Positions 1-51,543 of a stretch of 64,000 nucleotides of DNA are shown here, piece after piece. This DNA is from Eledone cirrhosa (taxonomy: Eukaryota). Below the pieces are notes generated by a model. The model ran no database searches, was not told the origin of the DNA, and was given only the letters and a program-made list of their open reading frames with translations. The stretch spans positions 350,610,001-350,674,000 of the forward strand of contig OZ024740.1 in the NCBI GenBank assembly GCA_964016885.1, in the 5' to 3' direction. Position 1 is the stretch's first letter. Every line of letters begins with the position of its first letter. The translations under genes and the position numbers were made by a program.

Positions 1-355
1 ACGAAGACAAAAATAAATAAATAAATAAACAGATTAAATAAAGATGGCGTAGATATACAATACAACAGGAGGAACATAATAATAGCACCACTGACGATGT
101 TGCAGATGTGCAACGAAAGAACTTTGTTAGACTATATATATGTGTTTGTGTCTATATTGTATCTGTATTTTTTAACCATTGGTCAGTCAATGATAACATT
201 GAGGACCGTCGGTCAGTCAATGGTAAACATTGAGGACCGAATAAATTAACTGATATAAAAGATACAGAAGCGAAAACCAACCAAGCAGTGAGTGTGTTCT
301 GTTATTAATTCTGGCAATATTATTACAACAATATGACCCTCCCCAAGTATAACAA
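1..355 (+). mobile_element. 3' end (pseudo-LTR region) of a Penelope-like element
   Basis: Reverse-complement match to 16858-17160, which lies directly downstream of a GIY-YIG ORF. Contains a hammerhead-like motif and ends in (TA)n. Confidence 0.75.
86..130 (+). ncRNA. Degenerate hammerhead ribozyme motif
   Basis: CTGACGA-T-GTTGCA-GATG-TGCAAC-GAAA. Stems I and III pair poorly. A second copy on the minus strand at ~17030-17063 has GGAA. Confidence 0.5.
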
Positions 356-2224
356 TATATATACACACACACACACACACACATATATATATATATATAT
401 ATATATATATATATATATATATATATATATATACATGCCCACACATATATTCTAGATTCAAACAAATCCTATATACAATGCATTACAGGAATCTAGTACA
501 TATTAACGTAGATGAACACTTCACAAACTCATAAAACATAAGACAAAATGCATTACACCAAACCATCATTTAAAGCCTATTATAAATTTTCAAAAAACAA
601 AAATAAGTCTTCTGAATGATAACAATCCACAAACACGTCAACCTACAATGAATCTACTAATGATCAATTTGATTTATGAAATCAATTCAAACGTGAAATT
701 CTAAACTTCGTGGCTCCAACTTTTATCTCAGTCATACAAGTACTATGTTCTCCCATCATTTTCTCATATACTTACAACGGGGCGCGATTGTAAATCATTA
801 CTCAACACAATACAATTTGTGATGGTGGCTATATTTTTCTGAAGAATGTGTAATCATTACAAGCCATGCCAAGAGATATCTCTTGATCTCACCAAGGGCA
901 GCAATTTCTATATGTATAAGCTCGATTCACTGGTTATGAGAGTTAATCGAGGTTTGGCTTTTTATACTATCGATATCAAACAGCATCTGTGTATTCCATA
1001 TGCTATTCCTGAGTGATATACTGTGTTTCTTGTTTTTACAACCTTATGGAGCGAGGGTTTCTGTCTAGGAACTGAATTGAGGGGCGTTTAATTTTTACGC
1101 CACATATTTGACCTGGCTGCGGTTAGCAGCCTGCTACAAATTATGACTACTCAGTTGTATAGATATCTACTAAGGCAATTCTCATTAAGTCCAATGACAG
1201 TTTATCTGAGCCTCTGGCGGGCAGAGTTCTGACTAGAAGCGTCTAACATATTCAAACCTGCTTCAATTGTTAGATTGCTCAACATCGCCATTTTACATTT
1301 GAAGATCAACGATCTAAGATGTACGTTGTAGTAGGAAATACCTGTACAATGGAGATTTACAGTGGCATTGGCGGGAAGGGGGGGGGGGGGGGGTGTTTCT
1401 CAAAATCACTTTATAGTGACATGAATAGATTCAGTGGGAAGAGAATTCGAATATAACTATTACCCCCTCCCCCCAGTTGTACGAGGCTGACAGACGTCCA
1501 CTTTCTTAGATACCACATTAAAACAGACCATCACAGTTTCATTTTCGGTCGGTGTGTACCCCCTTAACTTCTGACTTCCTTAACTGACTCACAAGTAGAA
1601 GAGCAGCGACTGATACGTCCGAGGCAACTGCACATTGTATTTCTGGTATTCCCAAATACTCTGAGAGGCATAACAGCAGTCAAATTAGCCGGGATGCGCT
1701 GGGCCCCCATTTACCGTATTTGGCTGTGTGTAGAACGTGTACTTTATAGGACGCCTCGCATACTACACACATTCCCGCTTTAACATAGTGGCTAGTGATC
1801 TGTATGGGAGAGGGTTACAATGGCTACTTCTCTGGACTCATCATATCACTCCTACGCATATATATGCACACACACACGCACACAGAAACACACACACACA
1901 CACACACGCACGCACACTGACACACATACACACATACACACACACTGACACACACACACACACACGCACACGCACACACACACACACACATACACACACA
2001 CACACACGCGCGTATATATAAATATAAACACACCTTTGCGTTATGCAAATATTCCGTTGCTGTATTTCCTATTTCACAGTTAAATGCTCCTCTGCTACAG
2101 TTTGCAGATGTGAATTTTTAAGTAGGTTTTTGTTAGCCTACTTGTGTTTCTATCTGATATTTACTTCAACTTTGTAGATAACCGATTCTTCACAGGGGTC
2201 ATTATTAAACAGGATTCTAAAGGC

Positions 2225-2430
2225 AGTGGATTAGTAGCAACCTTAGAATGTCCGACAAAATGTTTGGTGGTATTTAGTTACGGCCCTTTACATTCTGAGT
2301 TGAAATCCCTCCGAGACCAACTATGCCTTCTATCCTTTCGAAGAAAATAAATTAAAGCACCAGTAAAATACTGTGGTTGATATAATAGACAATTGCAAGC
2401 CTTGTGCTTCAATTAGAAATAATTACTAAG
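2225..2430 (+). mobile_element. tRNA-derived SINE family A (diverged copy)
   Basis: Shares the B-box-like GAGTT.AAATCC and the GCCTT.CATCCTT...ATAAA...ACCAGT core with copies at 24857, 34274 and 38716. Confidence 0.65.
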
Positions 2431-2732
2431 CAATAGTTCACATACAATTAAGGCGATGAATTGGCCAATTGTAGCCACAGAACTGCATGCGGTGGATGAA
2501 GTGATGTATGTGTCTCTTTAATTCTTTAGAGAACTCTAGGATGGGAAAAACTCATCAGTACTCCACCAACATGCCAAAATAGAACATAGCGGCACATTAG
2601 AGAAAATAGAGATAACAATTATATTCACACATAGAAAAGATGTAATGCCCAGACAAATCACAGAGGTGACAAACATAAACGAACTCCGACTAAAATTAAA
2701 CAGAAAACATGAGTGGAATAGCAACATCACAA

Positions 2733-2821
2733 CTGAACTCCGGCCGTTTCGATAGCTAGATCCGAACTGTTCGGATCTAGCTGTCGAAACGGCCGGAGCT
2801 CAGCCGTCGGAGTCCTGACTC
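2733..2821. repeat. Fold-back palindrome, family P
   Basis: ~34-bp arms CTGAACTCCGGCCGTTTCGATAGCTAGATCCGAA / TTCGGATCTAGCTGTCGAAACGGCCGGAGCTCAG. Relatives at 7657, 35182 and 51021. Confidence 0.85.
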
Positions 2822-2849
2822 TTTTCCCATATACATATATGAGGGATTC

Positions 2850-3190
2850 TCCAGTATTGAAGGTCATTTGAACGTTCGATTAAACAATCAGCTAAACGAC
2901 CTACTCATTGAATTTGTGTGCGAGGAGACTGAGTGTTCCACACACGCATAAATACACAACTTAACGTGCAATAAAACTGATACAATGTGACAAAGCAACA
3001 TCTTTGAGTTATTGATAGTTTATCAGATAAGTTTCTATTGAAGTTAAATTTGCCCAACTTCACTCACAAGACTTGGTTTGACCTAAAACCATTGTGGTAA
3101 AATCTTTCCTCAGATGTTACTGAGTAGGACCGAACCCGAGACCTCATGATTGCGAAGCGAATTTTCTAACCACTCGGCCGTACCAGCGCA
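2850..3190 (-). mobile_element. tRNA-derived SINE (family B-related, diverged)
   Basis: Minus-strand A box GGCCGAGTGG and B box GGTTCGGTCC. Body resembles 39420-39730. Confidence 0.55.
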
Positions 3191-50402: not shown

Positions 50403-50430
50403 CTGATGGAGGGTTTATGCCCGAAACGTC
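50403..50430 (+). ncRNA. Minimal Penelope-type hammerhead motif (A9-to-G variant)
   Basis: CTGATGG-AGGG-TTTATG-CCC-GAAA-CGTC. Confidence 0.6.
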
Positions 50431-50883
50431 GTTCCCCACACTCCACTCTAGCGTGAAACTAAAAACAATATCATTTGTACTGCCTCTCTGTTTTCTGTTC
50501 ATTTATTAAACTATATATATATATATATATATATATATATATATATATAAATGAAGTATTTTCGTCAGAAAGGTACAGGAAAAAGAGTGCTCTATGTAGG
50601 CTACAGAGCTTATTAGTTATGTAATAAACAACATAAGATAACTATTTCATTTACCAGTGGTTTCTTGAAGACAGATGTTGTGTCACACGCTTCAGTGTGC
50701 CCAGTGCTGTGACATCATCAGACAGCTGGTCAATTTCCTTCGGACTAGCGCCTGCGCATACCGGTGGGGGTGAATTGGAACTCACAGGGGAACGGGCGAA
50801 GAATTCACGAGCACACGCTTTGTCCGTCCCCATGTCGATTCAATTTGAATTGCCTCGGACACATAAAATTATTATGTAAGAAG

Positions 50884-50956
50884 CTGTCTGATGATGTCAC
50901 GGCACTGGATACACCGAAGCGTGTGGCCAATGTCGTCATTGAAATATGTATCACAG
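50884..50956 (+). ncRNA. Type I hammerhead ribozyme with extended stem II
   Basis: CTGT-CTGATGA-(ACGGCACTGG...CCAATGTCGT)-GAAA-TATGTA-TC-ACAG. Inverted partial copy at ~50680-50727. Confidence 0.7.
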
Positions 50957-51020
50957 AATTATCATTAAAACACTTTAACATCTGAAACTACTTCGCTTTA
51001 TATATATATATATATATATA

Positions 51021-51130
51021 GGAACAAGTATGACCCCGACGGCAGACCTCAAGCCGTTTCGACGGCTATTTCTGGACAGAAATAGCTGTCGAAACGGCTT
51101 GAGCTCTGCCGTCGGGGTCATACTTGTTCC
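51021..51130. repeat. Fold-back palindrome, family P, between (TA)n tracts
   Basis: GGAACAAGTATGACCCCGACGGCAGA...TCTGCCGTCGGGGTCATACTTGTTCC. Confidence 0.9.
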
Positions 51131-51448
51131 TATATCTATCTATATATATATATATATATACTTGTTCCTATTACCCACTCTACTACCCTAAGTATTGAGT
51201 ACTTTGGTGCGTTATGGTCCATCTGGCTCCTTACCACAATTCCTTCGTTATATATATATATATATATATATATATATATATATATATATATATATAATAT
51301 ATATATATGTATATATATATATATATAATATATACATATGTATATATATATATAATATATATATATGTATATATATATATATAATATATATATATGTATA
51401 TATAATATGGAAAATGAAGGACGAGTGATGCATCGGAACACAATTTAT

Positions 51449-51543
51449 TACGTATTACAATTGTTTCTCCGGCGAACAGCTCGAGGTGCGATCTGTTTGT
51501 GGATCGAAGCTAACTCTGTATTCGCAAGTTCCTCAGATACGTA
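51449..51543 (-). ncRNA. Type I hammerhead ribozyme with ~62-nt stem II
   Basis: Stem I TACGTAT/ATACGTA, CTGAGGA, stem II (GCGAA/TTCGC, CGATC/GATCG), GAAA, palindromic stem III ACAATTGT, GUA site at 51456. Confidence 0.8.

Follow-up and report, generated by a model that had tools for sequence, protein, structure and literature searches.

We analysed a window of 64,000 nucleotides (nt) of contig OZ024740.1 (assembly GCA_964016885.1, positions 350,610,001 to 350,674,000 of the forward strand), in which motifs shaped like type-I hammerhead ribozymes lie close to (TA)n microsatellites. Our data suggest that these motifs are likely dead 3′ tails of several families of Penelope-like elements (PLEs), together with at least two non-coding units that likely used the same machinery, and we place the probability of this reading at about 0.75. 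An initial annotation of the same DNA had proposed many independent non-autonomous ribozyme families served by a TA-targeting Penelope machinery. The PLE origin, the polarity of the TA runs, the unrelatedness of the sequences and at least one high-depth, permuted non-coding family with restored core bases bear out part of that proposal; the non-autonomy of most sites is not supported. Hammerheads at the ends of TA-targeting PLEs, octopus included, are an already published class, and the copies found here are decayed. What is left as new is the high density of motifs and the TA-anchored, retrozyme-like families in a probable octopod. Papers are cited by accession, and statements about them apply to the parts of their text that were consulted.

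The mechanism that we propose is as follows. A PLE protein with a GIY-YIG nuclease would nick TA-rich DNA, and reverse transcription would begin from a set position that lies 25-250 nt past the hammerhead. It would mostly halt early and leave a short tail with one hammerhead, often as a partial tandem or fold-back, and the inserted copies would afterwards decay. The two non-coding units, one of 625 nt and one of about 316 nt (family F), would have had an uncleaved multimer or a circle as their template, because their copies extend beyond the unit junction or cut site. The insertion structures themselves are seen in the 625-nt unit, in both family F loci, in the fold-back at 49407-49519 and in shared 3′ ends; target-primed insertion, the pairing of protein with element, cleavage and circles are what we infer.

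Hammerhead motifs and chance expectation

The window is repeat-rich animal DNA with 38% GC and 91 runs of (TA)≥5, and the nearest named relatives of its transposon proteins are from Argonauta and Octopus (54-59% identity). We found 15 type-I hammerhead-shaped sites in it, 11 of them from the initial annotation. Sites are named here by the position of C3, with the earlier coordinate in brackets where it differs; minus-strand sites had been given by their low end. The 11 are 91, 18515, 19955 (19951), 35661 (35655), 50403 and 50888 (50884) on the plus strand, and 8056 (7928), 14974 (14902), 18929 (18897), 48413 (48332) and 51536 (51449) on the minus strand. The four added sites are 36277 on the plus strand and 48947, 49461 and 17063 on the minus strand, the last a second copy of 91.

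When the sites were parsed by hand, the core (C3-A9 and G12-A15.1/U16.1) was intact in nine of the 15, carried one change in four and more in two. All 11 sites first annotated do hold a hammerhead-like motif; however, only six of them have an intact core (91, 8056, 35661, 48413, 50888 and 51536), while 14974, 18515 and 50403 have one change, 18929 two and 19955 four. The added sites 36277, 48947 and 49461 are intact. Three proper helices could not be drawn for 91, 17063 and 50403: stems I and III of 91 are weak and unconvincing despite its intact core, in which a bulged base and then a G-C pair open stem II, and stem I of 50403 is poor (Table 1). Stem III, described earlier as usually palindromic, is strictly so in 8 of the 15 sites and 6 of the 11, or about half. 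The stem II regions of four motifs are 55-101 nt long, a T..T lies at the base of stem II in 35661, 49461 and 50888, and a bulged base precedes G10.1-C11.1 at 91, 17063 and 50403. The sites share topology and mostly not sequence, as had been claimed: in the 105 pairwise comparisons clear likeness is confined to 91/17063 and 19955/35661, and seven more pairs are marginal, which leaves about 13 sequences.

We then compared the window with shuffled DNA using two type-I descriptors of our own, a strict one and a relaxed one, the latter composed after the sites were already known. The strict descriptor gave five perfect-core matches (18515+, 48413-, 48947-, 49461- and 51536-), against a mean of 0.25 and a maximum of 2 in 40 block dinucleotide shuffles. 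At a score of at least 22 the relaxed descriptor also gave five (8056-, 36277+, 48413-, 48947- and 51536-), against none in any of 60 shuffles and none in the reversed and complemented window sequence. Together they recover seven sites, four of which had been annotated before. The excess of perfect cores over shuffled controls that the initial annotation called for is therefore present.

A search against Rfam models turned out negative. No hammerhead or other ribozyme reached the gathering score in the window, and no hammerhead appeared among the 150 of 169 E-value rows examined, the top rows being microRNA models that match microsatellite hairpins. Divergent and long-stem hammerheads may lie outside the Rfam models. 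Descriptor matches with one or two core changes occur at shuffle level or slightly higher, so the decayed sites have no statistical support taken singly. These two results, and the want of a proper stem I in 91 and 50403, are what would be expected if the motifs were chance matches in AT-rich, hairpin-rich repeat DNA. Against this stand the perfect-core excess, the absence of matches in reversed or complemented sequence, a strand-specific TA polarity and the restoration of core bases in other copies (both below), and we give the chance explanation next to no credence overall. It is refuted for the seven descriptor sites and for family F, and may still apply to 91/17063, 50403, 18929 and 14974, each by itself. 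The hammerhead-shaped motifs in the window are real.

TA runs at the 3′ ends and the Penelope-like remnants

Read in the sense of the hammerhead, 12 of the 15 sites have a (TA)≥5 run within 300 nt downstream (background 0.185, p 4e-7), compared with 4 of 15 upstream (p 0.3). The same held for the seven descriptor-found sites (downstream 7/7, upstream 2/7), and among other CTGANGA heptamers in the window, taken as a control, 6 of 27 had a downstream run. TA runs downstream and not upstream are the polarity expected of target-primed insertion. Most motifs lie 70-320 nt upstream of the run, and the distance from the cut site to the element end is 24-253 nt. Second copies fix 3′ ends to the same base for 91/17063, for the 14322/18366 pair, for family F and for the two repeats of the 625-nt unit, and 43 contigs of sequencing run X1 enter (TA)n at 18746. 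By eye we saw no clear primary 3′-end motif common to all families. Predicted folding downstream of the motif reaches z ≤ -2.5 in 6 of 14 cases and is not general.

The initial annotation had every site bordered by (TA)n. Ten of the 15 do lie between TA runs no more than 1000 nt apart (background 18.9%), but the elements of 91 and 17063 run out into AT-rich DNA that is not a TA repeat, and that of 48947 stops at (CA)n. These three ends, an enrichment that is greatest on the 3′ side and the ATT preference of an Anolis PLE protein (PMC11167929) could mean that the elements insert into AT-rich DNA generally and that (TA)n grew later at the junction, with no true microsatellite targeting. However, so many short segments bracketed by (TA)n, a 625-nt unit that is TA-flush at both ends and the (TA)n preference recorded for nearly all Hydra-clade families (PMC8557442) make later growth very unlikely as the explanation.

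We found three PLE lineages in the window: Neptune-like, a second called lineage B, and Hydra-like. These clade names rest on motifs from PMC8557442 rather than on an RT (reverse transcriptase) tree. The three decayed Penelope RT or GIY-YIG open reading frames (ORFs) reported before were confirmed, and two more scraps were added. The Neptune-like RT has 534 relatives; where these are full-length, a Cys linker and GIY-YIG are present at the C-terminus. The lineage B ORF (18351-17364) is 59% identical to RT protein P0122 of Octopus vulgaris, and further scraps of this lineage lie at 2468-2728. Its copy ends in AT-rich DNA inside the Neptune-like RT. In the Hydra-like ORF (9063-9587) we read a CxCX5C linker ahead of GIY-YIG; the linker occurs in 113 of 150 matches versus 0 of 120 Neptune-like matches. 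The RT N-terminus is not preserved in the Hydra-like remnant; among the four long matches listed, DKT is present in three and RWK in one. A full HMMER search with 9066-9587 gave 3634 matches and a word-index search none. Pfam assigned no family to 7 of 11 window frames, both GIY-YIG remnants among them.

These remnants tie hammerheads to coding elements. The motif at 17063 lies in the lineage B 3′ tail on the strand of the ORF, and 91 belongs to an 84% copy of that tail (11..325 against 17141-16856); 91/17063 is therefore not a non-autonomous family. The Hydra-like remnant retains only the 5′ half of a motif, at 8995. Apart from 17063, 91 by homology and this half-motif, no site in the window had a same-strand PLE ORF match when 278 PLE proteins were used as queries.

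That most sites lack a nearby ORF match, that there are about 13 unrelated sequences, and that the window also holds two permuted non-coding units, a 903-nt non-coding segment and long stem II regions would suit a different account, in which most sites are independent non-autonomous retrozyme families that spread as self-cleaved RNA circles, with a TA-targeting PLE protein doing the copying. The high read depth of family F and of the family of 18929 points the same way, depth not being copy number. We consider this account unlikely. The pair 91/17063 belongs to an ORF-bearing PLE, ten or so sites are a single motif with no repeat, and no locus in the window has two complete tandem hammerheads. 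Most of the remaining sites are single motifs 45-185 nt from the end, as in 5′-truncated autonomous copies, whose short tails would also be without an ORF; PMC4209133 reads most genomic motifs in this way. The claim that most sites are independently non-autonomous is thus not supported here, and dead PLE tails remain the preferred reading.

Between 7877 and 10360 the element strand is depleted in G (7.5% and 9.5% G versus about 19-20% C). CTGANGA heptamers at 23950 (+) and 50568 (-) reach (TA)n within 15-19 nt. A weak Hydra-like match, 23433-23519, lies on the same strand as the 23950 heptamer.

Two permuted non-coding units

The 625-nt unit has 265-nt direct repeats that are 96% alike, 32% GC and a longest open frame of 73 amino acids. 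The more upstream of these repeats starts within the loop of stem III, some 12 nt short of the cut site, so the template of the unit was probably uncleaved, multimeric or circular. Family F is non-coding with 34% GC; the left ends of its two copies differ and the TA junction is identical at both loci. A common long helix extends stem I in both copies. Both also have a palindromic stem III, 12 nt long in one copy and 10 nt, with a different sequence, in the other. The folding z scores of family F are -4.5 and -6.1 as linear molecules and -4.5 and -4.7 as circles; that of the 625-nt unit is -2.0. Covariation, another proposed check, was seen in family F: in the two hairpins before its 3′ end 3 of 14 pairs are changed on both sides (5 rows, 2 loci; 2 of 500 shuffles), the structure having been drawn from the same rows.

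Two core bases that are changed in family F copy 1 are restored in other copies. G5 is present in 14533 of 14572 counts in X1, in 666 of 683 raw reads of X13 and in three contigs of X4, and G12 in 19648 of 20748 in X1 and 631 of 681 reads in X13. Read depth over 18300-20162 was taken from sequencing runs and is not equivalent to copy number; 11 of the 15 runs listed contain the sequence, none of them listed as RNA. In X1, which may be the sample of the window itself, depth was near 9.6 at 18615-18740; it rose to about 1e6 at 18804-18929 and lay at 0.3-7e5 over family F. Relative to single copy this corresponds to roughly 1e4-fold for family F, 1e5-fold for the 18929 family and 20-40-fold for the 18515 element; since depth gives no copy number, we describe the first two as very abundant. 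The part at 19749-19874 is also deep in organism D, with no depth over the hammerhead bin. Contig 8 of X1 reaches 2 nt past the unit junction at 19846 on one side and so does not bridge it; a bridge is provided by contig 11 of X4, which possibly represents the orthologous locus.

The 625-nt unit and family F would behave like retrozymes. Each locus holds 1.3-1.5 units and one hammerhead, short of the tandem by which a non-LTR (long terminal repeat) retrozyme is recognised, and for that reason their membership is unproven. Because the window has no two complete hammerheads in tandem, none of its loci would set free a monomer unaided. An antisense Hydra-like GIY-YIG scrap overlaps the unique part of the unit at 35657-35972 by 28 nt. 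We rejected the explanation that family F in its entirety represents the C-terminus of an endonuclease in antisense, as all four segments scored at shuffle level while the positive control passed. A further very deep repeat family with internal sub-repeats occupies 18990-19750, between two hammerhead elements.

It is conceivable, if rather doubtful, that more lies behind these units. The probable octopod genome could be among the most hammerhead-dense of animal genomes; the window has seven descriptor sites in 64 kb, and a genome-wide rate of one per 10 kb would be higher than the counts in the papers cited here. It could also hold true retrozyme families (F, perhaps the 625-nt unit and that of 18929), each present tens of thousands of times; these would be anchored in (TA)n by a Hydra-clade protein via a covarying hairpin 60-80 nt before a fixed 3′ end, a hairpin common to related families. 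Family F would then descend from a Hydra-clade element and would still adjoin, in antisense, the endonuclease sequence of that element. If true, this would provide a direct driver-passenger pair for retrozyme mobilisation, where the consulted parts of the literature cited here propose a protein that moves animal retrozymes and do not demonstrate one.

A retrozyme-like family with a conserved hairpin and a fixed, TA-anchored 3′ end supplies both the RNA and the target that an in-vitro test of a Hydra- or Neptune-type protein needs. PLE tails may also account for many of the short repeats that are unclassified in cephalopod-type genomes.

Besides the Rfam result, the shuffle-level matches and the three ends outside (TA)n, several observations weigh against a PLE-tail origin of the motifs. 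Within the window a complete motif is tied to an ORF in one family only, and that motif folds worst. Downstream TA enrichment is not significant at 150 nt (4/15, p 0.055); upstream sequence is also enriched at 500 nt (9/15, p 0.008), and three distances and three run lengths were examined. Most single-site 3′ ends are placed at the TA boundary by definition, and independently fixed ends come from five families. As regards folding, 3 of 21 background windows also reach z ≤ -3. The 40 of 156 rows of per-base counts examined do not include C3 and G8 of 19955 or the core of 18929.

Published counterparts and other features of the window

The closest published system is the Hydra clade of PLEs, in which almost all families with canonical hammerheads insert into (TA)n, 14 of them in Hydra magnipapillata; Hydra-1_Obim of Octopus bimaculoides, also (TA)n-targeting, has its hammerhead at 2403 of 2507 (PMC8557442). 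Sense hammerheads of this clade are mostly about 90-210 nt from the end, and many have a T..T at the base of stem II (PMC8557442). The window agrees in its (TA)n preference, in a sense type-I hammerhead near the end, in the variety of hammerheads within one genome, in the CxCX5C linker at 9063-9587 and in the T..T of 35661, 49461 and 50888. In contrast to the ORF-bearing consensus elements with short stem II loops described there (PMC8557442), it has remnants, four stem II regions of 55-101 nt and two non-coding tandems.

Hammerheads of PLE pseudo-LTRs form highly variable families, mostly single, and were ascribed to truncated PLEs (PMC4209133). Within-genome diversity, single motifs, a palindromic helix III, the bulge before G10.1-C11.1 and opposite-strand pairs recur here; unlike the minimal pseudo-LTR type, most window motifs have a longer helix III, and the consulted text of PMC4209133 does not discuss TA targeting.

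Animal non-LTR retrozymes were defined in PMC7229834, with more than 6000 motifs in 16 families in a coral, and have been argued to be non-autonomous PLEs, with cleavage in one of nine tested (bioRxiv 10.64898/2026.07.22.740005). Both sources propose that they are PLE-derived and PLE-mobilised. Family F is like them in being about 316 nt long, 34% GC and non-coding, with a type-I hammerhead, a permuted tandem and a stable predicted circle. It and the other window loci differ in having no two complete hammerheads and in being known here from DNA alone, and the consulted parts of the two papers report neither a fixed (TA)n 3′ end nor cephalopods.

The Poseidon PLE protein of Anolis cuts AT-rich DNA and starts 111-118 nt into the ORF, with the hammerhead cut site at +26, and uncleaved RNA was its main template in vitro (PMC11167929). 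The AT-rich target is shared, and an internal start in a stem-loop about 85-90 nt past the cut site fits both the 24-253 nt spacing and the copying of whole motifs in the window. This PLE is of another clade and has no microsatellite target, and its post-hammerhead sequence is ORF (PMC11167929). Our literature search, which did not extend to subscription papers or to the supplements of bioRxiv preprints, found no paper devoted to hammerheads of cephalopods or to retrozymes anchored in TA. The consulted part of PMC11662667 reports no active cephalopod twister, and that of PMC13282606 makes no mention of ribozymes.

Table 1. Hammerhead-bearing and Penelope-like features of the window, in order of position (motifs named by C3; cut sites are predicted).
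Position	Strand	Element	Hammerhead motif	Ends and flanks
11..325	+	Lineage B 3′ tail	Hammerhead-like, C3 91	End about 57 nt ahead of (TA)n
7877..8779	-	903-nt segment with no PLE ORF match; internal 234-nt tandem		Between two (TA)n
8056	-		Complete; cut after 7937; 9-bp stem I, 101-nt stem II region, palindromic stem III
near 8290	-	Within 7877..8779	5′ half-motif
8827..10364	-	Decayed Hydra-like PLE; thumb, linker and GIY-YIG remnant 9752-9057	5′ half at 8995	3′ end at (TA)n 8826, 169 nt beyond the half-motif
14322-14612		Sibling of the 18366..18745 element	5′ part missing	Same-base end at (TA)n
14656..15543	-	Non-coding 625-nt unit, 1.4 copies	C3 14974; A9 changed, stem II damaged; cut after 14908	TA flush at both ends
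15633..16832	+	Neptune-like PLE RT remnant, one internal stop; RVT_1 6.4e-07		Begins after (TA)n; cut short by lineage B tail
16856..18351	-	PLE lineage B, 5′-truncated; C-terminal RT thumb and GIY-YIG (18351-17364), 3′ untranslated region	Hammerhead-like, C3 17063	Ends at 16856
18366..18745	+	Low-depth element	Irregular, C3 18515	3′ end at (TA)n
18758..18967	-	210-nt segment of a very high-depth family	C3 18929, decayed (C3, G8 changed); palindromic stem III	Between TA runs
19758..20160	+	Family F copy 1; about 315-nt unit, 1.3 copies	C3 19955, decayed; cut after 19991	3′ end at (TA)n
35346..35972	+	Family F copy 2; 316-nt unit, about 1.5 copies	C3 35661, intact core	Inverted 162-nt arm to (TA)n
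35945..36073	-	Hydra-like GIY-YIG scrap; hidden Markov model independent E-value 2.1e-11, 112/150 queries		Antisense to hammerhead 35661
36265..36474	+		C3 36277, intact core; palindromic stem III	Cut site to (TA)n 153 nt
48254..48701	-	Inter-TA segment	C3 48413, intact core; 55-nt stem II region, hairpin stem III
48780..49352	-		C3 48947, intact core; 94-nt stem II region, palindromic stem III	End at (CA)n
49391..49519	-	113-nt fold-back (49407-49519)	C3 49461, intact core	Fold-back adjoins (TA)n
49938..50511	+	Inter-TA segment	C3 50403, minimal; A9 changed, 1-bp stem I, 4-nt palindrome
50550..50998	+	Inter-TA segment	C3 50888, intact core; 4-bp stem I, interrupted stem II, 3-bp stem III
50721	-	Diverging partial sibling of 50888	No stem I
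51396..51716	-	321-nt inter-TA segment	C3 51536, intact core; 7-bp stem I, 62-nt stem II region, palindromic stem III

That 50888 and 50721 might be the terminal repeats of a DNA transposon is unsupported: 50888 parses as a hammerhead and 50721 has no stem I.

The window also contains fold-backs. Palindromes of 70-110 nt with no hammerhead lie at 2733-2826, 7659-7709, 35177-35285 and 51021-51130; several are (TA)n-flush, and they are possibly inverted PLE-type ends. A 273-nt fold-back (36864-37136) ends at (TA)n and has a tRNA-Ser(GGA)-like gene (36969-37041) mid-way, and a second, partial copy at 7705-7849 is without the tRNA. Larger fold-backs at 34193-35008 (816 nt) and 49605-49897 (293 nt) each have one arm (TA)n-flush, and the first contains two inverted copies of a repeat resembling a short interspersed nuclear element (SINE). 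Near-perfect hairpins occur at 44017-44138, 13539-13622 and 25805-25861; the loop of the 13539 hairpin is (TA)n, and the other two are far from TA.

Other retroelements are present as well. A repeat of roughly 180 nt with a B-box-like motif, presumably a tRNA-derived SINE, is found in about 11 copies (2226, 24856, 28170, 34272, 34743, 37668, 38715, 40372, 41938, 46715 and 51748). Internal repeats were taken from a masked self-BLAST, an unmasked search being overwhelmed by microsatellites. Decayed non-LTR RT sequences at 28430-28900, 31838-33433 and 5278-5757 have a restriction-like C-terminus which by eye resembles CRE or HERO, with no Pfam match. Finally, three nested or tandem L1/Tx1-like non-LTR copies, to which we presume the Tx1 label applies, occupy 52054-63699 on the minus strand. 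They encode endonuclease and RT (Pfam 7.5e-29 and 1.5e-14) and are 87-98% alike, and their 3′ ends enter (AAT)n at 52053 and at approximately 58090 and 62860.

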